A stretch of DNA of 64,000 nt, taken from Deltaproteobacteria bacterium. GTDB lineage: Bacteria; Bdellovibrionota; FAC87; UBA2466. Under the pieces are notes generated by a model. It was not told where the DNA came from. It saw only the letters and a list, made by a program, of their open reading frames with translations, and did no database searches. Position numbers and translations under genes: made by a program. The stretch spans positions 22,644-86,643 of the forward strand of contig JACPWY010000019.1 of assembly GCA_016196825.1 (NCBI GenBank). The letters run 5' to 3'. This document shows positions 30,014-58,750 of this stretch, piece by piece (the first letter of the stretch is position 1; each line of letters starts with the position of its first letter).

Positions 30014-30165
30014 ACTTTCTACTCGGAACGATCAAAACACCCTGGCCCTTCGTTCTCCGGTATCGCTTGATCGCCAACTTTTAAAAGAAAGGGCCCGTTC
30101 TCCCCGGTCCGGGACATTTTGCCTCGCTCCTCCCGACGAAAGGGATTTAGGGATAGGCTCTTAGC
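30014..30165. repeat. MITE-like palindromic repeat, copy A (variant core)
   Basis: Shares the left arm ctttctactcggaacg…cctggcccttcg and right arm ggacattttgcctcgctcctcccgacgaaaggg…taggataggctct with copy D (56697-56874). It has a different central segment. It lies in a divergent intergenic region. Confidence 0.6.
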
Positions 30166-30250
30166 CCAACGCATTAACGCGCTAGACTGCCTAAAACACT
30201 TCAGAATTTCGCCTGTTTTGCCGATAATAGAGAAGTCCTCCACCCAAACC

Positions 30251-31048
30251 ATGCGATCCCTCTGCATCATTCCGGTCTATAACCAGGCGCTTGATCTTTC
30301 TTTGGTGCTTGAGAAGTGTCGAAAGGGAATCGCGTGCGATGAAATTCTTTTGGTTGATGATGGCAGCGATGATGGGTCTGAGACCCTTATCGAGAAGTCG
30401 GGTTTTCGTTTTCTGAAACTCAAGGAGCGAAAGGGGATCGGCCACGCCCTTATCCAGGGAACTCAGTACGCGATCGAGCAGGGATTCGATATCGTGATCC
30501 ACATGGCCGGCAATGGGAAGATGGATCCGGCCGAGATGCCTCGGGTCCTCAATCCCATTTTGGAGGGGAAGGCCGATTACGTGTGGGGGAGTCGATTTTT
30601 GCCGGGCGGACGCTGTGACAATACGCCCGCCATTCGTCGGTACGGGATCCCGTTTTTGTTTAATCTGATTCCACTCATCTTCACGGGTAAGCGGGTGAGT
30701 GATGCCACCTGCGGATTTCGGGCCTACCGGGTCGCTCTTCTCGAGGATATCGCGAAGGGTTGGGATCTGCCGTGGCTCTTCAAATATGAGTTTGAGTATT
30801 TTGTTCTAGCGAAGGTCCTCTTGAGTCGGCGCTACCGCTATCAGGAGGTGCCCATCAGCATGATCTATCCGGCCCGCAGGAAGAACTACTCGAAGATCAC
30901 GCCTGTCATTTCATGGTGGTCGATGCTTAAGCCGTGGATCGTGGTGCGCCTAGGGCTCGAGCCGAAGCGGATTAGTTCCGCGTCGTCGACTCCACTCCCA
31001 AAACGGCCTGATGAACGGCCGGCTTCTCAACAACGGGCCGAGGGTTGA
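30251..31048 (+). CDS. glycosyltransferase family 2 (polyprenyl-phosphate sugar transferase-like)
   Basis: ATG at 30251 gives MRSLCIIPVYNQALDL…ILLVDDGSDDGS (GT-A fold, DxD). The longer ORF from 30119 runs into the repeat element and is unlikely. Confidence 0.7.
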   Translation: MRSLCIIPVYNQALDLSLVLEKCRKGIACDEILLVDDGSDDGSETLIEKSGFRFLKLKERKGIGHALIQGTQYAIEQGFDIVIHMAGNGKMDPAEMPRVLNPILEGKADYVWGSRFLPGGRCDNTPAIRRYGIPFLFNLIPLIFTGKRVSDATCGFRAYRVALLEDIAKGWDLPWLFKYEFEYFVLAKVLLSRRYRYQEVPISMIYPARRKNYSKITPVISWWSMLKPWIVVRLGLEPKRISSASSTPLPKRPDERPASQQRAEG

Positions 31049-31442
31049 TGAGCGTTTTCATGTTTTCTCGCCCCAAGTAGGGCCCCTGCTTCAACTCCAA
31101 AAACTCCGTGTCTTCCAGAAAGTGAAAGGCGTGGCCGCCCCTTAAGAGGAGAAGCGAATCGCCTGGTCCCATTTCGAATTCCTTTAAGAGTGTGTCCGAG
31201 GTGTCATAGACGGAGGCGATCACTTTCCCCCGCTTGACCATGATGAACTCCTGAAACTCTTCAACTACGGCGGCCTTCCCTCTGTGGCGGTGAGGCTCCA
31301 CGCATCCCCCTTTTTTGAAAACGCCGATGCCCAACTGAATGGGCTCGCTCAGAGGTGTGAGGAAGCTCGTCTTCTCAGGGGAGTGCGTGGCTCCAATGAA
31401 AATGGCGATCATCTGGTCGCCTGATGTCAGAATCTCAAGCAT
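30972..31442 (-). CDS. WbuC-like cupin-fold protein
   Basis: MLEILTSGDQMIAIFIGATHSPEKTSF…GGCVEPHRHRG has a cupin His cluster. The start is ambiguous (ATGs at 31463 and 31442), and the upstream ORF region is the other-frame shadow of the methyltransferase. Confidence 0.45.
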   Translation of the reverse strand: MLEILTSGDQMIAIFIGATHSPEKTSFLTPLSEPIQLGIGVFKKGGCVEPHRHRGKAAVVEEFQEFIMVKRGKVIASVYDTSDTLLKEFEMGPGDSLLLLRGGHAFHFLEDTEFLELKQGPYLGRENMKTLINPRPVVEKPAVHQAVLGVESTTRN

Positions 31443-32181
31443 GGCCCACTCCTCGGCAAACATATAACAGATTGTAGTCCGTTGGCGAAACCGGCGCCTC
31501 TCGGTAGGCAGGGAGCATGTCAAGGCACTCCCATTCCGCGGCCCGGAGGTTCGCCAGGAATTCTCTCGGTGTTTGGTAATACATCGTGTGATTTTCAGAG
31601 GCCGAAAATCCATTGCGGCTGGAGAGGTCGATTCGAATCTCAAGTTTTTGTTGAATCCAATCCAGTTCAGCCACGGACTGACGGGTGTAAAGCGCTCCGT
31701 CGGACCCTGGGGCTGAGCGTTCGCGGTAGGAGGCGAACTGAAAAGGCACCGCCGAGCCGTTCCAAACGTCGAAGATGGCAATCCCTCCCGGCTTCAGACA
31801 AAGGCGCAGGCGCTTCAGTGCCGCCAAAAGGGGCTCCCCATGGGGCAGGTAGTTTAAGACAGAAAACAGAGACAGAACGAGATCGGTGGCCCCGTCGGGT
31901 GTGTGGTCCAGAAATGCGATGGGGAGCTCGGTTTTCTTGGCTCGCTCGCGAGCCAGAGCGAGCATGTCGGGGGAGCTGTCGACGCCGGTCACGGTCCAGC
32001 ATTGGCGTGCGAGCTGTTCGCAGTGTCGGCCGGTGCCGCAGCCGTAATCGAGTGCTGTCTTTCCGCCCGAGCGGCCATGGCGATCCCAGAGCGAAAGAAC
32101 GAGGTCGATCTCCTTTTCATAGTCCTTCCCGGCGTAGAAGGCGTCGTACAGGCTCGAGTACCGCTCGCCGAAGGGGGTCAT
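31435..32181 (-). CDS. class I SAM-dependent methyltransferase
   Basis: ALDYGCGTGRHCEQLARQCWTVTGVDSSPDMLALARERA is SAM motif I plus post-I. Confidence 0.7.
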   Translation of the reverse strand: MTPFGERYSSLYDAFYAGKDYEKEIDLVLSLWDRHGRSGGKTALDYGCGTGRHCEQLARQCWTVTGVDSSPDMLALARERAKKTELPIAFLDHTPDGATDLVLSLFSVLNYLPHGEPLLAALKRLRLCLKPGGIAIFDVWNGSAVPFQFASYRERSAPGSDGALYTRQSVAELDWIQQKLEIRIDLSSRNGFSASENHTMYYQTPREFLANLRAAEWECLDMLPAYREAPVSPTDYNLLYVCRGVGHA

Positions 32182-33311
32182 GGGGTGAGCACCCTCCGCA
32201 GCGTCGCTGCAATACGATCGATCTCCGATTCCGTCAGGTGGCTACTCGACGGCAGATAGAGTCCTTTGGCGCCGAGGTGTTCCGCGATCGGGAGCGACTG
32301 ACCGGTTTGGAAGATGGGCTGGGTGTGCATGGGCGAAAAGAAGGGCCGGGATTCGATGCCCCGCTCTTTCAGAAGGGCCATCGCGTCTGAGACGGTCCGC
32401 TTGGTGTAGCTTGGTCGCAAGACGATGCCGTACATCCAATAACAGTTGCGGGCCCACTCTCGCTCGACGGGGAGCTGGATGAGATCCTCGAGTGTGCGGA
32501 GCCGGTCGGAGTAGCGGCGAGCGTTTTGTCGTCGCATTTCGACCAGGCTCTCAAACCGCTCCGTTTGAGCGCAGCCGAGGGCTGCCTGGAGATTGGTCAT
32601 GCGATAATTGAAACCCACCTCTTCGTGGTGGTAGCGCCGCTCGCCCTTCAGGGGAAACGCGAGATTTTTGAGGGAGCGGCAGCGGTCTGCGAGTTCACGA
32701 CGGTTGGTGCAGACCATTCCCCCTTCTCCGGTCGAAATGATCTTGTTGGCGTAAAAGGAGTAGACCGTCACATCGGGGAGGGCGGCGAGCTTTTTGCCCT
32801 GGTAGAGGGCGCCGTGCCCTTCGGCCGCATCTTCCAGCCAGCTCAGGCCGTGTTGACGGCAAAACGAGGCGATCGGATCCAAATCACACGGGTGACCGTA
32901 GATCGTGACCGACATCACCGCTTTGGTGCGCGGGGTGAGGGCGGCCTTGAGTTGAGCGGGATCCATCGTCCAGGTGTCGGGATCGGAATCGATAAACACA
33001 GGAGTGGCGCCGCAGTACTGAATGGCGAGGGCGGAGGCCACCATAGTGAAGGACGGAAGGATTACCTCGTCGCCCCCTCCAATCCCCAAGGCCTTAAGTC
33101 CTAGGTGGAGACCGACGGTTCCGTTGCAGACGGCGATCCCCTCGCGAGCGCCAACCTTTTCGGAAAAGGTCTCCTCAAATCTCGGAATGAATTCGCCCGC
33201 GGAGGAGATCCAGCCGGTCGAGACGGCGCGAGTGACGTATTCGAGCTCGCGGGGGCCGAGGGTGGGCTCACAGACCGGGATGCGCTTCTGATCCATGCGA
33301 GGCTCTCCCAA
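32178..33311 (-). CDS. DegT/DnrJ/EryC1/StrS family sugar aminotransferase
   Basis: IPVCEPTLGPRELEYVTRAVSTGWISSAGEFIPRFEETF…AVCNGTVGLHLGLKALG is typical of the family. Confidence 0.8.
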   Translation of the reverse strand: MGEPRMDQKRIPVCEPTLGPRELEYVTRAVSTGWISSAGEFIPRFEETFSEKVGAREGIAVCNGTVGLHLGLKALGIGGGDEVILPSFTMVASALAIQYCGATPVFIDSDPDTWTMDPAQLKAALTPRTKAVMSVTIYGHPCDLDPIASFCRQHGLSWLEDAAEGHGALYQGKKLAALPDVTVYSFYANKIISTGEGGMVCTNRRELADRCRSLKNLAFPLKGERRYHHEEVGFNYRMTNLQAALGCAQTERFESLVEMRRQNARRYSDRLRTLEDLIQLPVEREWARNCYWMYGIVLRPSYTKRTVSDAMALLKERGIESRPFFSPMHTQPIFQTGQSLPIAEHLGAKGLYLPSSSHLTESEIDRIAATLRRVLTP

Positions 33312-34425
33312 ATAGCTGTGCCCTTGTCGACGATTTCACGCCCAGGGCGTTGGCGATGGCATTGACCACTGTGTGTTGAATCGCGGGTGTCATCTGGGGC
33401 CAAATGGGTAATGACAAAACCTCTTGCGCCGCCTGTTCGGCGATAGGGCACGAAATAGCGAGGTGCTGGTACACCGGCAATTGGTGCACCGGGGTGGGAT
33501 AATAGACGATCGTTGATACGCCGGCCTTTTTGAGGCTTTCGACTACCGCATTTCGCCGCCCGTCCCGAATTCGGATTGTGAACTGATGATAGACATGGCT
33601 TTCAGAATGAGGGGTGCATCCGACGCCCGGCATGTCGCTCAACAGATCTGTGTAAAGGCGAGCAGCCACATTGCGGGCGGCGTTCATCGCCTCGACGCGA
33701 GGGAGCTTGATGCGAAGAATGGCGGCCTGCAGTTCGTCGAGGCGCGAGTTGTACCCGAGTGTCTCATTACGATAGCGTTCGATTGAGCCATGGGTGCGAA
33801 GTTTTCGCGCCTGAAGCGCCAACTCGGGATCGGATGTGACGACCAGCCCCGCATCGCCGAAAGCCCCCAGGTTTTTCGTTGGAAAAAAGGAGAAGCACCC
33901 GACGGTGCCTAAAGAACCCAATCGTCGTCCATGGCGACGACCTCCGAAAGCCTGAGCCACATCTTCAATAATGGGCACATTGGCCTTCTGCCCAATCTCA
34001 ATGATGCGATCCATGTCGGCGCTCTGTCCGAAAAGATGAACCGGAAGGATCGCCTTGGTGCGATTCGTTATCAAAATCTTATCGGGATCGATGTCGAAAA
34101 ACTTGGGCCGAATGTCGGCGAAGACGGGGCGAGCCCCCACTAGGCTAATCGCTTCGGCGGTTCCGAAAAAAGTGAACGGGGTGGTGATCACCTCATCGCC
34201 GGGGCCAACGCCCAGGGCTCTGAGCGCGATCACAAGTGCATCGGTGCCCGAATTGAGGCCGACCGCATAGGGGACTTCCAAAAAATGAGCAACCTCCTGC
34301 TCGAAGCGCGCCCCCTCCTCACCGAGGATGAAATGGCCGCTCCTCACAACTCGTTCGAGGGCGAGCGAAATCTCGGGCCACAGCGCTTCAATTTCAGGTT
34401 TGAGGTCGAGGATCGGTATCATCAC
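33268..34425 (-). CDS. DegT/DnrJ/EryC1/StrS family sugar aminotransferase (second copy)
   Basis: MMIPILDLKPEIEAL…GLNSGTDALVIALRALGV. The downstream partner's start codon lies within its last 44 bp (33268-33311). Confidence 0.8.
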   Translation of the reverse strand: MMIPILDLKPEIEALWPEISLALERVVRSGHFILGEEGARFEQEVAHFLEVPYAVGLNSGTDALVIALRALGVGPGDEVITTPFTFFGTAEAISLVGARPVFADIRPKFFDIDPDKILITNRTKAILPVHLFGQSADMDRIIEIGQKANVPIIEDVAQAFGGRRHGRRLGSLGTVGCFSFFPTKNLGAFGDAGLVVTSDPELALQARKLRTHGSIERYRNETLGYNSRLDELQAAILRIKLPRVEAMNAARNVAARLYTDLLSDMPGVGCTPHSESHVYHQFTIRIRDGRRNAVVESLKKAGVSTIVYYPTPVHQLPVYQHLAISCPIAEQAAQEVLSLPIWPQMTPAIQHTVVNAIANALGVKSSTRAQLFGRASHGSEAHPGL

Positions 34426-34459
34426 GATGCATTCTAGAATACTGGGGAATAACCGAAAC

Positions 34460-34897
34460 TCAAGGTTTCAGGCGGGTGAAGCCCACGGTGATCTTCCCCC
34501 GGGCCACCACCCCGCATTGGGTTAGGTTTCGAATGGTGAGGTGGAGGATGAGCGCCCTTTCCCCCTCGATTCTCTGGGCCACAACGGTTTCAATTTCCAC
34601 CGAGTCTCCAGGATAGGACGGAGCGTGGTAACGCACATCAGCCCCGAGAAGGAGGGCTTGGCGGCCGGGAAAGACCCTCCCAATGAAATGGGACAAAAGG
34701 CCGTGGAGGATGCCACCGTGGATCACCGGTCCCTGAAAGCCAGCCTTTTGGGCAAATTCCTTGTCCGCATGAAGGGGGTTGGTGTCGCCAAAGAGCGCCA
34801 TGAACGATTGGTGGAGCTCCTCGCTGAGTGGGTATTCATGGCTGTGGCGATCGCCGAGATGCACCTGGTCAAAATGAAAATCGGGAGAGATCTCCAT
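34460..34897 (-). CDS. MaoC-like (R)-hydratase/dehydratase, hotdog fold
   Basis: FMALFGDTNPLHADKEFAQKAGFQGPVIHGGILHGLLS is the MaoC signature. Confidence 0.7.
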   Translation of the reverse strand: MEISPDFHFDQVHLGDRHSHEYPLSEELHQSFMALFGDTNPLHADKEFAQKAGFQGPVIHGGILHGLLSHFIGRVFPGRQALLLGADVRYHAPSYPGDSVEIETVVAQRIEGERALILHLTIRNLTQCGVVARGKITVGFTRLKP

Positions 34898-34950
34898 TTC
34901 GTTATTCTACCTGGTTGACGAGAGATCGGGAGTCTTGAGAGCTTCTGCAG

Positions 34951-36063
34951 ATGGCAGTGGCTTTGGTGACCGGCTCCTCCGGGCTTGTGGGGAGCGAGAC
35001 CGTAAAATTCTTGGTTTCTCAGGGGCTGGAGGTTCATGGGCTCGACAACGACATGCGTTCCTATTTTTTTGGAGGCGAAGCCTCGACGCAATGGAACGCT
35101 GAGTGGCTGACGCATCATCTGAAACCCTTTCATCACCACTCGCTCGATATTCGCAATGAGGCGGAGGTCAACGCGCTCTTTGGGCGATTTGGTGGCGCCA
35201 TCGATCTCATTGTGCATGCCGCTGCCCAGCCGAGCCATGACTGGGCGGCGCGCGAGCCGCTCACCGATTTTTCTGTCAACGCAGTGGGGACCTTGGTTTT
35301 GCTGGAGGCCGCCCGCCGCCATTGCCCAGCCGCCACGTTTATTTTTATCTCAACGAATAAGGTCTATGGTGACCGTCCCAATTCTTTGCCGATTCTCGAG
35401 GGGGAATCTCGGTATGAAGTGGATCCCAAACATCCTTTCGCGCAATCCGGCATCGATGAGACGATGCCAATCGATCAGTCGAAGCACAGTCTCTTCGGGG
35501 TGAGCAAGATGGCGGCCGATCTCCTGGTGCAGGAATATGGCCGGTATTTTGGAATGAAGACCGGCGTTTTTCGTGGGGGCTGTCTGGCGGGGCCGGCCCA
35601 TTCTGGCGTCGAGCTCCATGGCTTTTTGCCTTACCTTGTTCGATGCGCAGTAACCGGGATCCCCTATCGCATTTTCGGATATCGAGGGAAGCAGGTTCGC
35701 GACAATATCCATTCCGCTGATCTGGTGAGCGCGTTCTGGCATTTTTATCGGCAGCCGGGTTGCGCAGCCGTCTACAATATCGGTGGCTCGCGCCACAGCC
35801 ACTGTTCGATCCTGGAAGTGATTCAGCTGATTCAGGAGATCGCGGGGCGCGAAATTTCTTACACGATCGAGGATGGGGCGCGGACTGGTGATCACATTTG
35901 GTGGATCAGCGATGTGCGTAAGTTTCAGCATCACTACCCGGGTTGGTCCTACCGTTATGATTTGCGGGGCATCCTCACCGAAATGGTTGAGGCCGCGCGG
36001 GAAAGATATCTCACTCCCCAACACTTCCGACAGAGTTTGGAAACTCCCCCTCTCAACGCATGA
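34951..36063 (+). CDS. NAD-dependent epimerase/dehydratase family protein
   Basis: [21 protein letters not shown] is a Rossmann motif. Extended SDR, 370 aa. Confidence 0.75.
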
Positions 36064-39033: not shown

Positions 39034-39141
39034 TAAAACCCTCCATAGGCGAGGGTGGGGTCAAAGACCTCTCGCGGGATGAGCGCAATGAGCCGGAGGC
39101 TGAGCAGGGTGAGCATCAGGAGCGTTCCCCAGAGGGCGAGC

Positions 39142-40374
39142 TCAGAGAGTCGAGCTTGGTGCTGTTCCATAGATCTCCGCCAGAGTGGGGGTGACAGCTC
39201 GGGTGAAGAGTCTAGCCCCGTTGATGTTGAAATGATTGACGTCGTAATAGAGGCCCCGAACCTCGTCTTCCGAAAGACTGGAGAAAAGATCGGCCGGCAC
39301 AACGCCTGCCACAAAGAGATTGGGAGCGGGAAAGCGCCTCCTCCAGTCTTGGCGCAACACGATTGTGTGATCCGCGCGATCGAGAAACCGAGGCATGTCC
39401 AAGAGCACGACCTTTGTCCCGTGGGTGAGCGCGAGGTCCACCGCCTTGGCGAAAAAATAGGCGTCGTAAGGGGGAAGCGGTCGGTTGAGCGAGGAGAAAT
39501 TGTTTTGTGTGGCGGGGGAAAGAATAGTCCCTGTCGCACCGGTCGAAATATTTTTTTCTTGGAAGGACGGGTCTTCAGGGAAAGTTCTTGCGCTAAGAAG
39601 AGCGCCCGTTGAGGAGATGGTGGGATCGGATGGGTGAGAGTGTCTAGAACCTATCTCATAAATAGTTTCTACTCGGCTGGTCAAAAAGCCCAGGCTCTTC
39701 GTCCTCCGCGCTCGGCTGCTCGACGTGCCCAGAGGGCACGCCTCCGCGGCCTCGCTTGTGCGTCCTTGATCCAGGGCTTTTTGACTCAGCCTCGCTACGA
39801 AACTATTTATGAGATAGGTTCTATTTCTCAGAAGGCCTAAGACATGCCGTGGAGCCCCTAGATAGGAGTAGGCCCAGAGTCTGAATTTCGAGGGAAGATC
39901 GAGGCCGTTGAGCTCCCCGATGTGTTCTCCCGCGATCCACCAGTAGAGCGAGTAGTAGTGGGGTTCCTTTCGGCCCGCATCGCCCTCGGGTGGATCGATG
40001 ACGACCGTGTGCACTCGGCGTCGTTGGAGGAGCTCTTTCAAAAGAAGATAGATCAAATCTTCCCCTCGCCAGTTTGCGCCAAGATTCAAGGTGACCAATT
40101 TTTTTCCAGGCACCAGGGTCTCGGCCAAGAGATCGGTGTTCACTGCGTTCCAGATGTAAGACGATCCCAAAACAAGGAGATCGATGTCGCCGGTTTCTTC
40201 GAATATTGAATGAGCCATGAACTGGTAGTGGCCGCCGTGGCTCGGTGCGGAATGAAACTTTTGCTCCGGTCGATAGCCCGGCAGGCTCGGAAGAGCCCAC
40301 GGCAGAACTAACAGGAATGCGAGCAGAGCGCAGAACAGCCAGCCCTGCATGCGAGTGGAAAAGGCTGGCTCCAT
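39142..40374 (-). CDS. DltD/AlgJ-like (SGNH-type) extracytoplasmic protein carrying an in-frame MITE-like insertion
   Basis: N-terminal signal/TM (WLFCALLAFLLVLPWALP). C-terminal DAYFFAKAVDLALTHGTKVVLLDMP…LYYDVNHFNINGARLF resembles DltD/AlgJ acyltransferase-partner proteins. Residues about 178-245 are encoded by repeat copy B (39645-39823) with no stop. Confidence 0.45.
   Translation of the reverse strand: MEPAFSTRMQGWLFCALLAFLLVLPWALPSLPGYRPEQKFHSAPSHGGHYQFMAHSIFEETGDIDLLVLGSSYIWNAVNTDLLAETLVPGKKLVTLNLGANWRGEDLIYLLLKELLQRRRVHTVVIDPPEGDAGRKEPHYYSLYWWIAGEHIGELNGLDLPSKFRLWAYSYLGAPRHVLGLLRNRTYLINSFVARLSQKALDQGRTSEAAEACPLGTSSSRARRTKSLGFLTSRVETIYEIGSRHSHPSDPTISSTGALLSARTFPEDPSFQEKNISTGATGTILSPATQNNFSSLNRPLPPYDAYFFAKAVDLALTHGTKVVLLDMPRFLDRADHTIVLRQDWRRRFPAPNLFVAGVVPADLFSSLSEDEVRGLYYDVNHFNINGARLFTRAVTPTLAEIYGTAPSSTL
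39645..39823. repeat. MITE-like palindromic repeat, copy B (full)
   Basis: Perfect 24-bp terminal inverted repeats (agaacctatctcataaatagtttc / gaaactatttatgagataggttct). Inner arms are tactcggctggtcaaaaagcccagg / ccagggctttttgactcagcctcg. Conserved core cttcgtcctccgcgctcggctgctcgacgtgcccagagggcacgcctccgcggcctcgcttgtgcgtcct. Confidence 0.7.
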
Positions 40375-40454
40375 GGAGTGAAGTGTACCCTACTGAGGAG
40401 CTCATGGTTAAGGACACCGCAATGTACTGGCTTGTGATCGAAGCCACCGTCACT

Positions 40455-40534
40455 TCAGTCGGCGCAGTTTGAATACTTTTTGGTATACCGATTTGTATTA
40501 AAGAATAGATTTTGGTATACCGAAAAGTATTCAA
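40455..40534 (+). promoter_or_regulatory. AT-rich putative promoter/operator with duplicated palindromic site TTGGTATACCGA
   Basis: gaatactttttGGTATACCGAtttgtattaaagaatagattttGGTATACCGAaaagtattc carries two copies of GGTATACC (self-complementary), flanked by inverted gaatactttt / aaaagtattc. It lies immediately upstream of the AAA_14 gene. Confidence 0.4.
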
Positions 40535-43467: not shown

Positions 43468-43532
43468 TAGAACGTATTTCATAAATAGTTTCTACTCGGC
43501 TGGTCAAAAAGCCCAGGCTCTTCGTCCTCGCG
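43468..43532. repeat. MITE-like repeat, copy C (left half only, solo arm)
   Basis: tagaacgtatttcataaatagtttctactcggctggtcaaaaagcccaggctcttcgtcctcgcg matches the left 65 bp of copy B. No right arm is present. Confidence 0.6.
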
Positions 43533-45003: not shown

Positions 45004-47748
45004 TTACGGCCAGTAACGCATGATCGCGAAGTCGTAGCTGGCCGCCTGCGCATTACCCACCGCCACAATCTTGCCGTCGGACTGCAGCGCCAACCCAAAG
45101 ATGCTGTTGTTGTTGGCGGCGCCGCCGAGGCCTGTGTAATCCGTCTCGACCTGGCCGGTGCTGTTGAAGCTCGCGTCGAGGGCGCCGGCTGAGGTGAGCC
45201 GCATCATCGCGAAGTCTTTCTCCGTGTTTGTCGAGTAGCCGCCGATGATGATGTTGCCCGAGCTATCGATCACAAGCGCCGTGCCATCCGCCGCACCCGC
45301 GCCAATCGCGGTGGTGTAGGTGCCGGCAGTGCCGAAGGTGGCATCGACGGCACCCACAGAGGTCAAGCGCGTCACCGTCATCTGGTTCGAACCCGTCGCG
45401 CTCACGCCGCCGAGGACGATGTTACTGCTCGAGTCGATGGCCATTGCCTTCACGATGTCGGTGCCGGCAGTGACATCAACCGTGGTGTAGCCCGAGGTGC
45501 CGAAGTCCGTGTCGATCGCACCGACCGAGCTCACCTGGGCCACCGCGAACTGATAGGTGCCGGAGAGAGCCGTGCCGGCCATCACGATTTTGCCGCTGGA
45601 AAGAATCGAGAGGGCATAGCAATCATTCTGTGAATTTGCGATCGGGCTGAACACCGCTCTACCCGTGGTGTTGAAGGTCGTGTCGGCCGTTCCATCCGTG
45701 CCGTAGCGAGCGATGGCGAAACGCTTCTTGCCCGCGAGAGAGATGCTGTAACCGACGGCAACCGCTTTGCCATTGCTGTCGAGCGCGAGGCCGCGGAGCA
45801 CATCGTCTTGGCCGTTGAACTGCGTTATGGCGATGCCGCTCGTGCCGTAGGCGGTGTCGATCGCACCGGCCGAAGTCAACCGTACCACCGAGAAGTTGAG
45901 GTCACCCGAGGTGGCCGCCGAACCGCCGACTAGAACTTTGCCATCGGCCTGGATGACTACCGCGTAGGCAACATCGTTTCCACCCGCCGAAACATCGATC
46001 GAAACCTTACCGCCCGTACCGAATGAGGCGTCGAGCGCGCCGGCGGTGCTGTAGCGGGCGACCGCGAAATCCGTGTCGGAGCCGTTGTAGCTCGAACCGG
46101 CGACCACAATCTTGCCATCGCTCTGCAGGGCCACAGCGTATCCGTAGGCATCCGCAGAACCTATCGACGAGGCCACTTGGCCCGTGGTGTTGAAGGTCGT
46201 ATCGAGCGAGCCGGGGTTGCCGATGCCTGTGCCGGTCATCGCGCGGGTCGCGCTCGAGGTCGAGGCATCCGGAAGAGTGTAGTTGACCGTTAGCGTATCG
46301 CTCGCGGCACCGAGGGCGGTCGGGCTGAAGCGGACCACGATTGTGCAGGTGGCGAGGCTTCCGATTGAATTGCCACAGGTGCCGCCGGTGCCGGGGTACG
46401 CACCGCCCTTATATGTGTACGGCGCCGAGAGGGCCGCCCCACTCACGACCGTGGCCGAGCCGTGCTGCGAATTGGTCACCGTGAAGGACTTATCCGTATT
46501 TGTGGTGTTGATGTACTTCGAACCGAAGCTGTAGGTCGCGCCATCTGAAATCGAAAGTGAGGCATAGCCGAGGCCCGTGCCAGCCACATCGCGGGAGGCG
46601 GTCTGCGTGGCGACGCCATCATTATAGGTGAGGTTGATGGTGCTGCTCGTGGCGCCCGTAGCCGTTGGGGAGTATGTCACGATGAGCGTGCAGGTCGCGC
46701 TGCCGGCAAGCGAGGCGCCACAGGTGCCGCCAGTGCCGGGATATGAACCACCCTTGTAACCGTACGGAGCGGCGAGGGCCGGAGTTGTGTTCGAGAACGA
46801 AGTTGCCGTTGCGCTACCCGCGTTTGTGACCGTGAACGTCTTGTCGGCCGTGAGTGTCTCGTAGGTGTCGGGGTAGGTGTAGGTGGCGCCGTCCGAAACC
46901 GAGAGAGAGGCCGGGGTTTGGCCCGTGCCCTGCATCGCGCGCGTGGCCGATTGTGTGCTTGTGCCATCATTGTAAGTGAGGCGGAGCGTGTCCGAGCTCA
47001 GCACCGCGGCCGACGGGGTGTAGCGCACAACCACCGTGCAGGTGCCACTGGCCGCGAGGGTCGCGCCGCAGGTGCCCCCGGTGCCGGGGTAGGCGCCGCC
47101 CTTGAAGGTGAACGGGGCCGCCATCGCGGGGGTGCCAGCCGCCATCGCCGTCGCGCCCACCGTGCCCGTGTTAGTCACGGTGAAACTCTTGTCCGAGGTG
47201 TTGCCGATCACAATCGTTCCATAGTCGTAGGTGGCGCCATTCGAAATCGAGAGGACCGCGCCGTCGGAGGCCGCACCAGTCAGCTGCGTGATGTCCGAGG
47301 TGAGGACGGTCTTGCTGTCGACCCCGTTATAGTAGGTCAAGAAGAGCTCGCCTGTCGCGGCGCCACTTGAGGTCGGGCTGAAAGCAAGAACCACGGTGCA
47401 GGTCTCACCGACCTGAATCACAAGGCCGCAAGTTCCGCCGACGCCGGGGTAGTAACCGCCGAGAAAGGTGAACGGGGCAGTGAGCGACTTGGGTTGCGGG
47501 GCACTCGCGAGGAGGCCACCGTTGTTGGAAAGGGTCAGGTTGGCCGTGACCGTTCCGCCCACGCTTGCCGTGCCGAAATCGATCGGTCCGTTTGTCGCCA
47601 CGAGATTGGCCGGACCAGAGATGAGCTTATCGGAATCTTTTTTCTGCTTGCGGCAAGAAACTGCGGACGCAGCTAAGATAAGCGCGAACCCAACGTATTG
47701 GGCGAAGCGCAGAGAGGCTTTAATTTGTGAGCAGCTACCAACGTACAT
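45004..47748 (-). CDS. large secreted/lipoprotein with N-terminal Gly/Thr-rich Ig-like repeats and C-terminal delta-60-type repeat region
   Basis: Signal/lipobox-like N-terminus (ALILAASAVSC). At least five repeats share FTVTN-G…PY.YKGG.YPGTGGTCG…C…V.(R/T)(Y/F).P(T/S). The C-terminal half has repeated TDFAVARY…G.LD..FG..G motifs, which are delta-60/beta-propeller-like. Confidence 0.6.
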   Translation of the reverse strand: MYVGSCSQIKASLRFAQYVGFALILAASAVSCRKQKKDSDKLISGPANLVATNGPIDFGTASVGGTVTANLTLSNNGGLLASAPQPKSLTAPFTFLGGYYPGVGGTCGLVIQVGETCTVVLAFSPTSSGAATGELFLTYYNGVDSKTVLTSDITQLTGAASDGAVLSISNGATYDYGTIVIGNTSDKSFTVTNTGTVGATAMAAGTPAMAAPFTFKGGAYPGTGGTCGATLAASGTCTVVVRYTPSAAVLSSDTLRLTYNDGTSTQSATRAMQGTGQTPASLSVSDGATYTYPDTYETLTADKTFTVTNAGSATATSFSNTTPALAAPYGYKGGSYPGTGGTCGASLAGSATCTLIVTYSPTATGATSSTINLTYNDGVATQTASRDVAGTGLGYASLSISDGATYSFGSKYINTTNTDKSFTVTNSQHGSATVVSGAALSAPYTYKGGAYPGTGGTCGNSIGSLATCTIVVRFSPTALGAASDTLTVNYTLPDASTSSATRAMTGTGIGNPGSLDTTFNTTGQVASSIGSADAYGYAVALQSDGKIVVAGSSYNGSDTDFAVARYSTAGALDASFGTGGKVSIDVSAGGNDVAYAVVIQADGKVLVGGSAATSGDLNFSVVRLTSAGAIDTAYGTSGIAITQFNGQDDVLRGLALDSNGKAVAVGYSISLAGKKRFAIARYGTDGTADTTFNTTGRAVFSPIANSQNDCYALSILSSGKIVMAGTALSGTYQFAVAQVSSVGAIDTDFGTSGYTTVDVTAGTDIVKAMAIDSSSNIVLGGVSATGSNQMTVTRLTSVGAVDATFGTAGTYTTAIGAGAADGTALVIDSSGNIIIGGYSTNTEKDFAMMRLTSAGALDASFNSTGQVETDYTGLGGAANNNSIFGLALQSDGKIVAVGNAQAASYDFAIMRYWP

Positions 47749-50621: not shown

Positions 50622-50627
50622 ATACGA

Positions 50628-53083: not shown

Positions 53084-53856
53084 TAGTCAAAATGTTCGGA
53101 TTCGCCATATTGGTGGGCTGTCTTTTTATAGTCTTCGAGTTCGAATCCCAATCGGAAGCCACGGGCATCATGCGAATCTTTCACTGGCCGGCTATGGTGT
53201 TGACCGGAATCGGTCCGACGGCCCTCGTGTTTATGTGTTCGGAGGTGCGGGCCTTTTTTCAAACGATTGGATTTGTCTTTGGTCGCTCCGCCATGAAGGT
53301 TAAAAAGAAACATGATGTCGAATTGATGTTGCTGCAGAAGATCTCAAAGGACTTCTACACGCAAGGCCCGAAAGTGTTTGAAACGGTGCAGGTGAAAGGT
53401 CTTTCGGCGTTTATCGTGAAAACGATCGATCGCCTGTCGATCCGAATGCCTACGCCGGACGTTCGCGAGCTCCTGCAATCGGAATGTGAACGGGTGGAGC
53501 ACAACATGAAGAACTGCGTAAGTGTGCTTGGAATGGGTATCAAGCTCACCCCCTCCGTAGGAATGTTGGGAACCATCATGGGAATGGTGAACCTGCTCGC
53601 CAATATGCAGGATCCCTCGACAATCGGCTCCTCAATGAGCTTAGCCCTTCTCACGACATTCTTTGGACTGTTTTTTTCCATGACCGTTTGGACACCGCTT
53701 CAGGCGAAGGTTGATCGGGTCATGACGGCGGAAATCGATGCCTATGAAAAAACGATTCGTTGGCTTGAGACTTTAGAAAAACGCAAACCGGCGACCTACT
53801 TTGCTGACGCGGTCAATATCAAAGTGATCGATGCAGCTCCAGCCGGAAAGAAATAG
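53080..53856 (+). CDS. MotA/TolQ/ExbB family proton-channel protein
   Basis: Four TM helices with a large cytoplasmic loop between TM2 and TM3. Conserved LGMGIKLTPSVGMLGTIMGMVNLL in TM3 resembles the MotA/ExbB signature. 258 aa. Confidence 0.7.
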   Translation: MIVKMFGFAILVGCLFIVFEFESQSEATGIMRIFHWPAMVLTGIGPTALVFMCSEVRAFFQTIGFVFGRSAMKVKKKHDVELMLLQKISKDFYTQGPKVFETVQVKGLSAFIVKTIDRLSIRMPTPDVRELLQSECERVEHNMKNCVSVLGMGIKLTPSVGMLGTIMGMVNLLANMQDPSTIGSSMSLALLTTFFGLFFSMTVWTPLQAKVDRVMTAEIDAYEKTIRWLETLEKRKPATYFADAVNIKVIDAAPAGKK

Positions 53857-53868
53857 AGGACTACTGAA

Positions 53869-54507
53869 ATGAGCGGCGGCGGTGACGATGAGTTTCTGTG
53901 GCTGATGAGTTTGAGCGATCTAATGATTCTGCTCTTCATCTTTTTCGTCGTACTTTTTAGCTTCACCTATAAGAAGGTGAAAAACGTCGACATGTCTCGG
54001 ATCGCGGAGATCATGCGCACCGGGAAGGCCTCCGAGACCCCGGCTGAAAAGCTACAAAAGAAGATGGAAGAGTTCACAAAGCAGGAGCATCTCGACCAGA
54101 TGATCGAGGTGGTCCGTGAGGAAGACACCGTTCGTCTCGAGATCAAGGACAAGGTTCTCTTTGCTAGCGGCGATTATATTCCCACGGAGGGTGGAGTCAT
54201 TGTTCTGGCAAAATTGTCGAAGGTGCTGGAAACAGTCCCCAAGGAGTTTCAGATAGGAATTGAGGGCCACACCGATGACGTCCCCTTGCGAGGCGCCTCG
54301 ATTCGAGACAACTGGGAGCTCGCGGCTCGTCGTTCTCTCGCTGTCTTTTACGTGATGAACGTGACTCCCGAACTGCTCAAAAGAATTGTTGTCATGGCCT
54401 ACGGCGACCAACGCCCACTCGTCCCCAACCGCGACCCCGCCGGCAATTCCCTCCCGGAAAACCAGGCTAAAAACCGCCGTGTCACCGTCCGCATCTTCCA
54501 ACTCTAA
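53869..54507 (+). CDS. MotB-like protein with OmpA-family peptidoglycan-binding domain
   Basis: N-terminal FLWLMSLSDLMILLFIFFVVLF with a conserved Asp, like the MotB plug/TM. C-terminal IEGHTDDVPL…NWELAARRSLAV…NRRVTVRI is the OmpA/MotB PG-binding motif. Confidence 0.7.
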   Translation: MSGGGDDEFLWLMSLSDLMILLFIFFVVLFSFTYKKVKNVDMSRIAEIMRTGKASETPAEKLQKKMEEFTKQEHLDQMIEVVREEDTVRLEIKDKVLFASGDYIPTEGGVIVLAKLSKVLETVPKEFQIGIEGHTDDVPLRGASIRDNWELAARRSLAVFYVMNVTPELLKRIVVMAYGDQRPLVPNRDPAGNSLPENQAKNRRVTVRIFQL

Positions 54508-54519
54508 AGCAACTCTCTA

Positions 54520-56685
54520 TCAGGTACTCTTTTCAGAGGGCCGTGGGGGAAAGGCGGGGGTGCAGGATTCATCCGCCAGTGTGAGGTTGGGATTATAGTA
54601 TGGGTCGTTCGCGAGGGCGTCGCCCCAACGCTTCATCATCCAGTCGTTCTCCCGGCGGAACCGATCGATTCGCTCGGGGGCCTCATCTGATCCACGGGTT
54701 GCGGATTCCAGGTGATAGAGCTCGGCGTAAGGGGTCCATAGGTTGCGATAGCCAGCCTTCCTCAGTCGAATCCCGAGGTCAACGTCATTGAAAGCCACAG
54801 GAAGGTTCACCTCATCAAAACCCGCCACCTCTTGGAAAATAGTCCGTCGGATCACAAGGCACGCTCCGGTCACCGCAGTGTAGGCCTGCATGACATTCGC
54901 TCGCCCGATGAAGCGCCCCGTGTTCGCGGGCTGATGTTTTTGGGGGTGGCCGGCGACGCCACCGATACCCAGGACAATCCCCGCGTGCTGGATCGTGTTG
55001 TCGGCGTAATAGAGCTTGGCCCCCACGGCTCCAACTCCCTTTTGATTCGCGACGCGGACCATCTCATCCAGCCAGTTGGGTGCGATGACCCGAAGGTCAT
55101 TATTGAGAAAGGCCAGAATGTCCCCCCGAGCTTCGCGCGCGGCGAAATTATTCATCGCGGAAAAGTTAAAGGGGTGGTTGAAAGGGAGAACCCGCACTTT
55201 GGGATGGGACGAAATTGCCTTTAGATAGTCGATGGTTTCCGGTTCCGAGCTTTGATTGTCGACAATCAGAATCTCGAGGGGGTCGTAGTCTGTGTTGTGG
55301 AGCAGATCGTGCACAATGGCGGTGAGAAGGTCTTTTTTGTCGCGTGTGCAGATCATGATCGAAACCAGTGGTTGGGAATTGGGTTTCGGGTACACCACCC
55401 GGTGGTAGCTCTCATACCCTTCAGTCACCCGGGCCTCAACGCCTTGCGAGAGTAGGTACTCTCGAATGGATCGCCGGGCGTTTTCATGGGCATACCCCTT
55501 CGCCCCAGGTCCGAGCGCCGTGGAGCCCGCGATCGCCCGCCAGTGGTAGAGAATTTTCGGGATGTGACCGATCCGATCGGGAGATGTGTGCGCGATCACG
55601 CGCAGAAAGAGATCATAGTCCTGGCTCCCCTCATAACCTCGCCGAAATCCACTGACTGCATTCACTAGACTCCGCCGAATGCAGGCCAGGTGAGTGATGA
55701 GGTTGTAGGAGAGAAACAGGTCAGGGTTCCATTCGGTCTTGAAGTGTGGCTCAAACCGGTGGCCAAAGGAATCGATCTTATCCTCGTCGCTGTAAATGAG
55801 GTCGAGATCCGGCTGGCGATCGAGGCGTGCGGCCACCTCAAGCAGAGCATTCTCTGACAGCTCATCATCGTGATCGAGGAAGACGACAAAGTCCCCAGTG
55901 GCCAGCTCCAAGGCGGAGTTTGAAGCCTCTGAAATGTGGCCATTGATCGGGCGTCGGGTGATCTTGATCCGCGGGTGCTCTTCAAACTTTTGGAGAGTGG
56001 CTTTCACCGACGATAGGGAGGAGTTGTCATCGGCGATACAAAGTTCCCAATATGGGTAGAGTTGGCGAGTCACAGATTCAATCGCCCGAGTTAGGTAGGG
56101 CTCAGGCGTGTTGTAGACCGGAAGGATGACTGAAAACTTGGGGTGAGACGAGAGCCTTTCGAACTGTTTCCTCAGGAGGTCCCGCTTTGAGTCATCGATT
56201 GTGTCGTAGTTCTCAACCCAGATCGCGTACTCATTCTTCACGCACTCGCCCGATTGAAAAACCAGATCCTGAATGAGAGCGCGCACCAGCCGCCGTTGGC
56301 CCTGGGTTTCGATAAGCTGGCGGACAAAGGTCACTAGTCTTTTTGGATGCACGAGAAACCGAGCCAGGATCGGCATCAGGCTCAAAGCGAGGCTACCGGC
56401 AGTGGCCAAGGATCGGAAAGAGATGGCCTGCGGAGTTGCACCCTCAACCGCAAGGGTCTCCACCCACCCGGGAAATTTGATAAACGCTTCGCCCCTTTGT
56501 CGAGGTGAAGAAAGAGTCACTCGATAGGGCTCGCGGTTTTTCCCGAAACGTGCCGTCACACAAAGCGTGAAGGGCTGTCGCGAAGCCGAGTTTTCAAAAT
56601 CGACCCGCACCCAGCCGAGGGGAAAATCGACGACGGGCAGCTCCCAGCGGCCTGTGGTTCCGTTATTGCGAAAGTGAAGCGCCAT
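54520..56685 (-). CDS. large glycosyltransferase with two GT2 (GT-A) domains
   Basis: First domain FSVILPVYNTPEPYLTRAIESV…CIADDNSS. Second domain VSIMICTRDKKDLL…ILIVDNQS. A 170-aa N-terminal domain is unknown. Confidence 0.7.
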   Translation of the reverse strand: MALHFRNNGTTGRWELPVVDFPLGWVRVDFENSASRQPFTLCVTARFGKNREPYRVTLSSPRQRGEAFIKFPGWVETLAVEGATPQAISFRSLATAGSLALSLMPILARFLVHPKRLVTFVRQLIETQGQRRLVRALIQDLVFQSGECVKNEYAIWVENYDTIDDSKRDLLRKQFERLSSHPKFSVILPVYNTPEPYLTRAIESVTRQLYPYWELCIADDNSSLSSVKATLQKFEEHPRIKITRRPINGHISEASNSALELATGDFVVFLDHDDELSENALLEVAARLDRQPDLDLIYSDEDKIDSFGHRFEPHFKTEWNPDLFLSYNLITHLACIRRSLVNAVSGFRRGYEGSQDYDLFLRVIAHTSPDRIGHIPKILYHWRAIAGSTALGPGAKGYAHENARRSIREYLLSQGVEARVTEGYESYHRVVYPKPNSQPLVSIMICTRDKKDLLTAIVHDLLHNTDYDPLEILIVDNQSSEPETIDYLKAISSHPKVRVLPFNHPFNFSAMNNFAAREARGDILAFLNNDLRVIAPNWLDEMVRVANQKGVGAVGAKLYYADNTIQHAGIVLGIGGVAGHPQKHQPANTGRFIGRANVMQAYTAVTGACLVIRRTIFQEVAGFDEVNLPVAFNDVDLGIRLRKAGYRNLWTPYAELYHLESATRGSDEAPERIDRFRRENDWMMKRWGDALANDPYYNPNLTLADESCTPAFPPRPSEKST

Positions 56686-56696
56686 TTTTTGGTTTA

Positions 56697-56874
56697 AGAG
56701 CCTATCCTAAAACCCTTTCTACTCGGAACGGTCAAAATGTCCTGGCCCTTCGTCCTCCGCGGTCGGTGTCCTCGACGTGCCCAGGGGGCACGTCTGCGGG
56801 ACCTCCCTTGTGCGTCCTCGGTCCAGGACATTTTGCCTCGCTCCTCCCGACGAAAGGGTTTTAGGATAGGCTCT
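56697..56874. repeat. MITE-like palindromic repeat, copy D (full)
   Basis: Perfect 23-bp termini agagcctatcctaaaaccctttc / gaaagggttttaggataggctct. Core cttcgtcctccgcggtcggtgtcctcgacgtgcccagggggcacgtctgcgggacctcccttgtgcgtcctcg. Confidence 0.7.
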
Positions 56875-58527
56875 AAGCGTGACCCGTTTGATCAAATTCA
56901 ACGCTCGGCGAGCCATTTTCACCGAACGCCTATTGAGAAATGCCTTCATCGCTGCGTTCTCGGCCTCGAGCCCTTGGAGGCGGCTGCGCAAGTGGGCCTC
57001 CACAGCGGGCTGCCTGGGGAAGGCGAGCGGTGGAAAGACCTGACCAAAAAGCTTCCGAAGCTCTGCGCGGTGGTGGTTTCGAGATCCGCCGCCGACGCGC
57101 TCCTGAAACTGGGCCTCTTGCTCCAGGGCCTCCTCGAAACGGGGTGCAACTCCGATGGAGTGGCAAAGAACGGTGTAAAGGTCATGCAAAGTGCGAAATG
57201 GCGCCGACGCACTCAATGTCTCAAAATCTCGAATGCAGGCAAAGACGTTCCGAAACACGAACCAGTGCACGGGAACGGGGCCAGCATTGTCCCATTCGAG
57301 ATCAAAATTGGTGAATCCCTCTCCTTCGACAATGGCGTTGAGGAAGACGGCATCCAGCGCCTCAGCTCTGAGTGCTTCGTTCGACTCTCGATACCGGGCG
57401 GCGGCCCAACGCAGATAGTGCGTGAAAAGGAATTGGAAGCGATCCCATTCCTCGAAATAAGCGGCGCGTGCGAGCTCAAAACGAAAAGGGGTCCCCGGAA
57501 CGAGCGGCGATTCGGTTTTGCCCTTGGTAACGGTGAGCCCCGAGGGTTTTTCCTGGAACCGGGTCTCGGAGTTCCCAAAGTGCCAGGCCAAAAGGTCGCG
57601 AGGCGGCCGGACCGTTTCCAGAATCGATGAATCCGCCTTCGTTGAGGCCATCACCAAAAAGGAGTTGGACATCTCGGCAAGCCAACCTTCACGAGCCGCG
57701 GTCAGCGTGGCCAAAGAATCGGGAAAGGAGCGCACCCGCGGGGTCGTATAGTTTTCATAAGGCCTGTGACACGCCAGCGAGGCCGCGGCCTCGGGGGCCC
57801 GCTCCAGCATCCTTTCCGTGAGCACACAGCTCGGGATCTTATAGTCGGGAAAGGGGTAGAGGAATTCGGCGCATTCAAAACCCGAACTTTGAAGAAGCGA
57901 GGAAAGCCGTTTACGGGAGAAGGTTTTGGCGCCGGGGCGGGAGGAATAGCCCACCATTCCGTCATAAAGCGTTCCATTGTGGTCTTCAGCCGCGCCGCCC
58001 CAATATTTCAGGCCGAGGGCATTTTCGATCGCGAGGATCAATACTCCATCGGGTTTCAAAAACCGTTTCACCTGTTCGAGAAAGATCGGGTGCGCCAACT
58101 CGGTGGGTGTGATGAACCGTTCGGCGTATTCGAGGACGCCGATCACAATGGCCACATCATACTGTCGCCGTGGAGTGCAGGTCGCAAACTCCGCCACCTC
58201 GCCGGTCCAGTTTGAAAGACCCTGCAGACGCAATTCGATTCCACGGTGACGATCTTCCGTCCCCTCGATCGTGTGAAGGGAGCGGGCGTTTTCCGCGAGG
58301 TATCGAGAGACAGCGCCCATGCCAGCGCCGATCTCCACAACATCTAGCCCCTGAAAGTGAAACGGGCGGACAAGATTCGAGCGTTCGCGGCAAAGGTGGT
58401 AGCGGACCGACCACTCCCCATACTGGGTCGCGCCCGGGTTTTCCCCCGAACCTAGATTCGGCGAGTCGGCCAGAATGGCCCTTACGCGCGCCTCTTCAGC
58501 TGCCCCGTCGGTGTACTCGATCGCCAT
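56719..58527 (-). CDS. SAM-dependent methyltransferase domain protein with large C-terminal extension; 3' end encoded by repeat copy D
   Basis: LDVVEIGAGMGAVSRYLAENARSLHTIEG is SAM motif I. 602 aa. The last about 50 codons (…CPLGTSRTPTAEDEGPGHFDRSE*) lie inside the MITE-like element, so the native C-terminus is uncertain. Confidence 0.55.
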   Translation of the reverse strand: MAIEYTDGAAEEARVRAILADSPNLGSGENPGATQYGEWSVRYHLCRERSNLVRPFHFQGLDVVEIGAGMGAVSRYLAENARSLHTIEGTEDRHRGIELRLQGLSNWTGEVAEFATCTPRRQYDVAIVIGVLEYAERFITPTELAHPIFLEQVKRFLKPDGVLILAIENALGLKYWGGAAEDHNGTLYDGMVGYSSRPGAKTFSRKRLSSLLQSSGFECAEFLYPFPDYKIPSCVLTERMLERAPEAAASLACHRPYENYTTPRVRSFPDSLATLTAAREGWLAEMSNSFLVMASTKADSSILETVRPPRDLLAWHFGNSETRFQEKPSGLTVTKGKTESPLVPGTPFRFELARAAYFEEWDRFQFLFTHYLRWAAARYRESNEALRAEALDAVFLNAIVEGEGFTNFDLEWDNAGPVPVHWFVFRNVFACIRDFETLSASAPFRTLHDLYTVLCHSIGVAPRFEEALEQEAQFQERVGGGSRNHHRAELRKLFGQVFPPLAFPRQPAVEAHLRSRLQGLEAENAAMKAFLNRRSVKMARRALNLIKRVTLRAYPKTLSSGGARQNVLDRGRTREVPQTCPLGTSRTPTAEDEGPGHFDRSE

Positions 58528-58567
58528 AGACGACAGAGGCTAGCTCAAAGGCGAAGAGGTGTGAATA

Positions 58568-58750
58568 CTAATCCCTCAGCTCGATTGAATTTGGCCACTG
58601 GGCGGGTGCTTTTGACCGACCACTTCGTCCTCCGCGTTCGGCTCCTCGACGTGTCCAGGGGGCACGCCTCCGGGGCCTCTCTTGTGCGTCCTCGTGGTCG
58701 GCCAAAATCCCCTCGCCGATTGGACCAAATTCAATCGAGCAGAGGGATTA
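58568..58750. repeat. MITE-like palindromic repeat, copy E (full, divergent arms)
   Basis: Termini ctaatccctcagctcgattgaatttgg / ccaaattcaatcgagcagagggattag (1 mismatch). Core cttcgtcctccgcgttcggctcctcgacgtgtccagggggcacgcctccggggcctctcttgtgcgtcctcg. It contains the stop codon of the downstream gene. Confidence 0.7.

Follow-up and report, generated by a model that had tools for sequence, protein, structure and literature searches.

A stretch of 64,000 nucleotides from a Deltaproteobacteria bacterium of the Bdellovibrionota (contig JACPWY010000019.1; the whole stretch is referred to here as "the window") carries a dispersed family of palindromic repeats of ~175–180 bp, the intact copies of which fold, as single strands, into one long rod. 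We read these repeats as a family of non-autonomous mobile palindromic elements, i.e., miniature transposable elements with inverted repeats (MITEs) in the broad sense, in which the fold of one strand is kept, and we put the probability of this reading at about 0.7. Copies of the family are insertions that have landed between and within genes. Their pattern of conservation is the inverse of that of a textbook MITE: the loops and the apex of the rod are kept across genomes with different phylum-level labels, and the arms covary. The family is new, in that no counterpart was found in Rfam or in the literature; otherwise, it is an ordinary kind of selfish element. A reading of the window made from its sequence alone (the "sequence-only reading") had already proposed a MITE-like family, and it was essentially right: the repeats are dispersed, non-coding, and palindromic, have the size of MITEs and TA ends, and are present in other genomes. 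That reading missed the better-supported strand, the reversed conservation pattern, and a probable relative at 6400–6593.

Copies in the window and their fold

Five loci in the window are related repeats, at about the positions first given for them. They comprise three intact copies (B, D, and E), one decayed copy (A), and one half copy (C), all on the minus strand and thus identical in orientation. Copy B (39645–39823) is a 175-nt element (39647–39821) with TA at 39645–46 and 39822–23. Copy D (56695–56876) is a 176-nt element (56698–56873) with TAA at 56695–97 and 56874–76. Copy E (58569–58750) is a 178-nt element (58571–58748) with TA at 58569–70 and 58749–50. When a covariance model of the conserved core was run over the whole window, also with filters off, the scores were 122 bits for D, 118.8 bits for B, 107.3 bits for E, and 25.9 bits for A; no other site scored above A.

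The layout of the element is given here as read on the minus strand of the window, which is the reverse complement of the consensus in the sequence-only reading. From the outside in, the rod consists of TA, P1, J1, P2, J2, P3, J3, and P4, the apical hairpin, with TA also at the far end. P1 corresponds to the outer arms, which are about 23–30 bp long and highly variable in sequence; the arms of a single copy are complementary at 25/25 positions in B, 23/23 in D, and 29/31 in E. The J1 loop has 5' CGU(A/C)GCGAGG facing 3' C(C/G)GCAGU(A/U)G. P2 is about 15–19 bp long, usually with an A/T tract. J2 is a large purine-rich loop, with 5' GAGGACGCACAAGNGAGG facing 3' GANCGCGGAGGACGAAG, and P4 contains a conserved G.U pair. 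GAGG occurs in every conserved loop, and the longer word GAGGACG is found on both strands of J2, as a direct repeat. Readings of the loops as kink-turns or as hepatitis delta virus (HDV)-like motifs were rejected by inspection.

Folded as single strands, B, D, and E each form one long rod, with RNA energies of −97 to −103 kcal/mol (B, −97.4); for D, a value of −106.9 kcal/mol was also obtained. Folding of these repeats is far beyond chance, since the z-scores range from −9.3 to −11.9 (B, −11.9) and none of 200 shuffled sequences folds as well. Copy D also folds stably as DNA (−59.2 kcal/mol; z-score of −11.2). Folding had been suggested as a check on all copies; B, D, and E fold strongly, and A does not (z-score of +1.2).

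The sequence-only reading described a core shared by five copies. This ~70-nt core, which comprises the J2 loop strands, P3, and P4, is carried by B (39697–39766), D (56748–56818), and E (58623–58692) only. P4 is formed by 39722–39730 paired with 39734–39742 in B, 56774–56782 paired with 56786–56794 in D, and 58648–58656 paired with 58660–58668 in E. The GACGTGCCC/GGGCACGTC hairpin at the apex, previously called perfect, is indeed so in D, but B and E have one mismatch each on the strand used in that reading, corresponding to a G.U pair on the opposite strand.

Copy A (about 30007–30163) is a degenerate copy of the D type. It retains one terminal arm and P2, and ends in GGCTC-TTA at 30156–30163; the core is scrambled, the apical hairpin is lost, and the other terminal arm is decayed. 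A repeat finder aligned it to D over two flanking segments with 85% and 94% identity. We also considered A as a copy with a replaced core, in which both GAGGACG repeats had changed in concert; this was ruled out, as the alignment shows a decayed copy. Copy C (43468–43529) is a half copy of the B type, consisting of TA, an outer arm, J1, an inner arm, and the minus-strand motif GAGGACGAAG. It matches the opening 62 nt of B at 97% identity and breaks off exactly after CTTCGTCCTC, the first conserved core motif. These identities bear out the arm subfamilies, A with D and B with C, that had been proposed earlier. A further 26-nt stretch in overlapping open reading frames (ORFs), at 60352–60377, is 81% identical to the A/D terminal arm; it could be due to chance or be an old remnant.

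Covariation and strand preference

Searches outside the window (see below) recovered 39 further copies, giving 42 in total with B, D, and E. The main covariation data come from these 42 copies, aligned to the core covariance model with its 28 modelled pairs. Standard pairs occupy 93.2% of cells, and changes on both sides are seen at 25 of the 28 pairs. The covariation score, which is taken from an alignment that favors its own structure, is 0.731, as compared with 0.179 in shuffled alignments; with the partners slid along the sequence, it does not exceed 0.205. An independent run of RNAalifold on a MAFFT alignment of 20 copies found compensatory changes at 24 of 33 pairs. The same trend is seen between close relatives: pairs of copies with 84–96% identity, which are not independent of one another, differ by 55 compensated double changes, 32 single changes that preserve a wobble pair, and 29 single changes that break a pair. 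For L039 and L046, two copies from outside the window, the counts are six, two, and zero, respectively. Neutral decay of dispersed copies would give mainly pair-breaking single changes. More than 20 positions outside the pattern used for the search are still ≥90% conserved.

There are several indications that the pairing is maintained on one strand. In 19 of 20 copies, the better fold is that of the minus strand. At the second pair of P4, 30 of 42 copies have G.U, which would be an A.C mismatch on the other strand. Across the core and P2, G.U pairs outnumber A.C mismatches 73 to 12, or 43 to 12 without the conserved P4 pair. The outer arms of 35 copies have 83 G.U pairs and 9 A.C mismatches, and A.G and G.G mismatches together number 54, as compared with 8 for C.T and C.C. 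From these counts, the minus strand, i.e., the complement of the consensus first reported, appears to be the selected form. Since both orientations relative to genes occur, strand-specific mutation bias is a poor explanation for this asymmetry, and selection on the pairing of one strand is simpler. In DNA, the mildest mismatches are G.T and G.A; hence, the strand evidence fits RNA and single-stranded DNA equally well.

Insertion sites, distribution, and relatives

One view of an insertion comes from copy D, which lies between a methyltransferase gene and a glycosyltransferase gene. The methyltransferase ORF (56719–58527, minus strand) encodes 602 amino acids, and its last 52 codons (56719–56874) are read-through into D. 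The best homologs of the protein are 559–578 amino acids long and cover 91–93% of the query, and homology to an ortholog with 56% identity stops at residue 550, two codons ahead of the terminal TTA of D. On the minus strand, the junctions read ...CGC TTA/GAGCC...GGCTC/TTA AAC..., with slashes at the ends of the element, and the start codon of the glycosyltransferase gene follows 11 nt on. L029, a syntenic relative, has no element at this junction, and its methyltransferase and glycosyltransferase genes share 23 nt, although this comparison is across only 56% identity. A search for presence/absence differences in relatives, as proposed in the sequence-only reading, therefore finds D missing from an orthologous junction.

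Copy B lies in frame within a gene (39142–40374, minus strand) that adjoins an MBOAT gene and encodes 410 amino acids, of which residues about 184–243 derive from B. A 356-amino-acid homolog aligns at both ends of the protein and has 58 gap positions between the two aligned parts; the gene has a net gain of 177 nt, equivalent to 59 codons, and the reading frame is kept. Copy E provides, with its terminus, the TAA stop codon (58748–58750) of a DUF4423 gene, and ends 36 nt upstream of the methyltransferase start codon. It is found at the same site in locus L027 of a sister metagenome-assembled genome (MAG). In three samples, contigs assembled from short reads of this population break off within B, D, and E, as repeats would be expected to cause. 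With B inside an ORF, D and E abutting the ends of genes, and A and C between divergent genes, the earlier statement that copies sit at gene boundaries or inside genes holds. No frame is consistently open across 20 copies, as judged with loose element boundaries. The practical effects of the insertions are the gain of 59 codons by one gene and of 52 C-terminal codons by another, the splitting by D of an operon junction at which the two genes of the relative overlap, and the fragmentation of metagenome assemblies of these uncultured, Bdellovibrio-like hosts.

By our reading of the listed flanks, TA is present on both sides of about 24 of 38 copies, and the subfamily with GAGCC ends (D and the copies at L049, L064, and L037) has direct TAA or TTA flanks. 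Judging from these sequences, a target duplication of 2–3 bp is likely.

To find the family elsewhere, we searched for the exact pattern of two core anchors in a set of one genome per species, in metagenome contigs, and in viral contigs; the additional copies come from Bdellovibrionota and other MAGs, and from metagenome contigs. The one-genome-per-species scan gave 25 matches, of which 17 are true copies (77–121 bits) in at least eight MAGs. These MAGs are labelled Bdellovibrionota, Bdellovibrionaceae, and Pseudobdellovibrionaceae, with one Phycisphaerae, one "Pseudomonadota", and one unclassified bacterium. The other eight matches are due to chance, most of them being coding repeats of Streptomyces. 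Metagenome contigs added 22 true copies, 14 of them from a single metagenome; the elements are ~70% G+C. The one match among viral contigs scored only 12.9 bits and is a chance match, and blastn found no match in plasmids and phages. MAG contigs with the label "Deltaproteobacteria bacterium" have almost the same sequence as the window, and homologs of its proteins are named Bdellovibrionota. No equivalent is described in the literature we found on Bdellovibrionota or Deltaproteobacteria. A search of the window against Rfam 15, whose families include ribozymes, 6S, Y RNA, and IS605-orfB, gave nothing at gathering score, nothing was found on B at E-values up to 10, and two weak matches in the D/E stretch (E-value of about 6.5) both lie outside the elements.

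Three intact copies were found in ~84 kb of this genome, all inside 19 kb of a polysaccharide-synthesis gene cluster; the core model finds no extra copies in the ~20 kb that flank the window in contigs of the same population. No MAG has more than five exact-pattern matches. A figure of several hundred copies per genome, extrapolated earlier from five loci per 64 kb, finds no support in these counts.

Some of the copies found elsewhere are incomplete or unusually placed. A copy without outer arms at L002 5615–5814 is directly upstream of, and co-oriented with, a tRNA-Met gene (5615–5689), and L025 and L032 also have short forms without P1. A solo terminal arm of the E type (...AACTGAACTCAGGGATTAA) at the end of an ORF, at L062 3684–3708, is a remnant comparable to half copy C. 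Two copies at L051 (253–377 and 1471–1553) are in opposite orientations 1.1 kb apart, arguing against a strict orientation rule.

The region at 6400–6593 of the window, on the plus strand, is a probable divergent sixth relative. The 194 nt form a near-perfect rod hairpin that has CTA/GCC...GGC/TAG ends and an RNA energy of −143 kcal/mol. This hairpin is built like the five copies, in the opposite orientation and with a different apex, and scores 25.1 bits on the plus strand and 15.6 bits on the minus strand. The short-read contig L069 ends 30 nt into this region, and for that reason the region is probably repeated in the genome. A scan for long hairpins identified two further variants, at L062 4192–4385 and L034 3296–3491, with TA ends, a P1 of the type TAGCCCGCATTTCTCACCAG, J1, P2, and a P4 with the same G.U pair; a closed helix takes the place of the J2 loops. 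The same P1 type surrounds the core-bearing copy at L007. At both loci, these variants adjoin or abut other TA-flanked hairpins without GAGGACG loops (L062 4106–4195 and L034 3127–3304). One of the hairpins is a 90-nt short form with AACAG-type arms, and the others have the P1, J1, and P4 of the family. Together, the hairpins suggest a wider superfamily that clusters locally. For the conservation of the GAGGACG loops across phyla, a recognition site specific to one clade and a role at the RNA level are candidate explanations.

Other repeats were noted in passing. A separate palindromic family with arms starting with (C)CGTCATTGCGAG occurs at three unrelated loci (L049 927–1031, L006 2908–3001, and L015 241–357). 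At 40469–40534 of the window, an AT-rich 66-nt palindrome with two TTGGTATACCGA units, possibly an operator, lies just before the GTG start codon (40535) of an AAA_14/DUF4143 ATPase gene. Three sets of in-frame units are found in coding sequences of the window: tandem 351-nt units at 28359–29360, which are the PAS domains of ORF 28201–29865; tandem 63-nt units at 27092–27374, in the PAS histidine kinase ORF 25648–28185; and units of 168–174 nt and about 348 nt at 45161–47480, in a 914-amino-acid DUF5122/Ig-like protein. Lastly, the ORFs at 16469–16822 and 22493–24969 encode a small HNH endonuclease, a PIN-domain protein, and two more AAA_14 ATPases. They lie in a stretch of lower G+C content (about 50%, 22–30 kb), which may be an accessory island.

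Possible mechanisms and comparison with known systems

The way in which bacterial MITEs move is still largely unproven (PMC2229807). As first reported, no transposase accompanies the copies: the ORFs of the window have no Pfam match to a transposase, integrase, or reverse transcriptase, no Y1/HUH match, and no RAYT. No neighboring gene recurs across 38 loci, the neighbors being members of common families only (two-component systems, ABC transporters, and secretins). Under our preferred reading, propagation would depend on the fold of the single strand, either as DNA during mobilization or as RNA, and an enzyme acting in trans would recognize the conserved loops and the TA-closed base of the hairpin, not a fixed sequence at the termini. 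In mRNAs shared with genes on the minus strand, B, D, and E would each form a long, mostly double-stranded hairpin, which may affect processing of the transcript.

TA ends fit some enzymes of the IS5 type (IS5 subgroups). They also fit enzymes of the IS630 type, as in the IS630/RUP pair (PMC2229807). The family might thus consist of classical cut-and-paste MITEs that use a DDE transposase of an IS630/Tc1-like or IS5-like element, which would bind terminal inverted repeats (TIRs) as double-stranded DNA and duplicate TA/TNA; the hairpin and its covariation would then be by-products of the need for both ends to match one transposase. We regard this as unlikely, though it explains a good deal: TA on both sides of most copies, the direct TAA/TTA repeats of the GAGCC-ended subfamily, and identical arm types in different genomes. 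It has a precedent for TA targeting in RUP/IS630-Spn1 (PMC2229807), and our own reading of the termini suggests a loose common tip motif, roughly GRGSNTRTMYC. It does not account for covariation that runs through P2, P3, and P4, about 60 nt per side and well past the footprint of a transposase, nor for compensated double changes between close copies that are scattered along the arms. The excess of G.U over A.C and of purine mismatches points to pairing within a single strand, B, D, and E have three different termini within one genome, and ~490 kb of loci include no insertion sequence (IS) bearing these ends. These very different termini, the covariation of the whole rod, and the pairing bias of one strand fit better with an enzyme that recognizes the folded strand, a mode put forward for REPINs (PMC3116915), than with one specific for TA ends.

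The one-strand pairing constraint and the compensatory changes, the latter having been reported for REPIN spacers (PMC3116915), would also suit mobility in the form of folded single-stranded DNA, as in REPIN/RAYT-like or attC-like elements. An HUH or tyrosine enzyme, with a single gene at another place in the genome, would recognize the hairpin and its conserved loops and cut at the hairpin base. The stable DNA fold of D, the presence of GTAG in some J1 loops, the shared orientation of all five copies in the window, and a weak association of orientation with GC skew (20 of 29 loci; p of about 0.02) are in line with such an element. Set against this, the arms do not consist of conserved REP sequences, the motifs are repeated directly rather than inverted, GTAG is not universal, the L051 copies have opposite orientations, and no RAYT, Y1, or integrase gene was seen among the window ORFs or the neighbors of the loci. 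The selected strand is also the C-rich one, and in transposition of the IS608 type the C-rich strand is not the expected lagging-strand template. All in all, this specific mode of movement is doubtful.

The fixed loops, covarying stems, conserved G.U pair, and GAGG-containing purine-rich loops are also what a functional structured RNA on a mobile scaffold would be expected to have, whether as a GAGGA-loop module that binds a protein or the ribosome, or as a cis-acting element in mRNA processing or stability. The better folding of the minus strand, the sense orientation of B, D, and E relative to flanking genes, and the retention of the P4 hairpin with its G.U pair even in variants with a different apex add to this. 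Still, there is no Rfam match, promoter or terminator of its own, or association with a class of genes, a scan for promoters gave nothing above shuffles, placements are both sense and antisense, and decayed (A) and truncated (C) copies occur as in selfish DNA; we therefore hold a primary function as RNA to be improbable. Stable hairpins at gene ends, and ORFs that run through B and part of D, could also be read as intrinsic terminators or paralogous coding segments, two alternatives that the sequence-only reading had raised. Both are highly improbable. The elements are not followed by a U-tract (or, in DNA, a T-run), and terminator-like sites are not in excess over shuffles. Conservation is at the level of nucleotides and base pairs, with compensatory changes that scramble the peptide, and both the lack of a consistently open frame and the homologs of the host proteins, which do not have the segment, contradict a coding origin.

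Several observations weigh against the preferred reading of mobile elements with a maintained single-strand fold. Empty sites in the same population were sought via the flanking proteins, and none was found at nucleotide resolution; consequently, a TA/TWA duplication looks the same as TA that is part of the palindrome. The ~490 kb of loci also contain no longer element with the same ends, and no autonomous element or mobilizing enzyme was found. Several types of terminal arm recur in distant genomes, which cognate end-binding transposases could explain. The existence of variants without GAGGACG loops means that these loops define one clade rather than a general requirement for mobility. At the 21 core positions that were set by the pattern used for searching, apparent conservation is inflated, and alignment to a covariance model favors the modelled structure. 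Finally, in co-directional contexts, 10 copies are sense and 6 are antisense relative to neighboring genes, which is a weak bias only.

The elements share the general properties of MITEs in the broad sense: they are small, non-coding, multicopy, and dispersed, TIRs are also found in the copies outside the window, and presence/absence is seen at an orthologous site. The family agrees with the published profile of bacterial MITEs in its length (100–200 bp in the profile), its TA termini, its long stem-loops, which contain A-G mispairs, and its fusions to ORFs in frame (PMC2229807). It is set apart by the RNA-like conservation of its single-strand fold. The Correia/NEMIS elements of Neisseria are similar in being 100–160 bp long with TIRs of ~25 bp, TA at both ends, and no known transposase, and in being located in or next to genes (PMC2229807); their transcripts form long hairpins that are reportedly cut by RNase III (PMC2229807). 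However, there is no sequence relation, and Correia copies are nearly identical within one genus, whereas in the family described here the arms differ by subfamily and genome, the loops persist across phylum labels, and there is covariation with a bias to one strand. Nezha is an IS630-mobilized MITE, likewise a small palindromic non-coding element with a TA target. RUP of Streptococcus pneumoniae is another such element (PMC2229807). RUP has a known parent IS whose ends match its own; no such IS was found for the present family, in which the hairpin spans the entire element. RPE of Rickettsia and YPAL/ERIC are also palindromes that lie in frame within protein-coding genes or extend ORFs (PMC2229807), but the copies described here have no consistently open frame, and their host lineage and sequence are different.

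REPINs, which depend on RAYT, are hairpin-forming and non-autonomous, show compensatory changes, and have been proposed to move via a single-stranded intermediate (PMC3116915). They have conserved REP arms and a variable middle, the opposite of the present arrangement, in which the repeated motifs are direct. A REPIN consists of two inverted conserved REPs, each with a 5' GTAG and a palindrome, around a variable spacer; here, GTAG is found in some J1 loops only. The attC sites of integrons are read as folded single strands, in a strand-selective manner, by their structure and a few conserved or unpaired positions, with the conserved boxes at the base of the hairpin. The present family may be comparable to attC sites in this one respect, i.e., strand-selective recognition of a folded strand. 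Its conserved part is at the apex, however, and there is no integrase gene in the window and no cassette array. IS200/IS605-derived PATEs have subterminal hairpins in direct orientation at both ends, a fixed target of 4–5 nt on the left only, and no inverted termini; the elements described here are instead a single inverted repeat over their full length, with TA on either side.

Termini that drift while one-strand pairing, purine-rich loops, and a single G.U pair persist across phylum labels are what would be expected if a folded strand is recognized, and the identity of the enzyme or host factor that reads the fold thereby becomes a testable question. A bolder proposal, which we put forward tentatively and consider rather unlikely, is that the elements are replicators selected as a folded single strand, i.e., a ~180-nt rod of RNA or single-stranded DNA with GAGG-containing non-Watson–Crick loops and a conserved G.U pair that has spread across phyla. 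They would be moved by a hairpin-specific enzyme new to MITEs, or would act as a portable RNA module that binds a host factor. Such replicators would be closer in logic to attC sites, REPINs, and viroid-like rods than to inverted repeats bound by a transposase.

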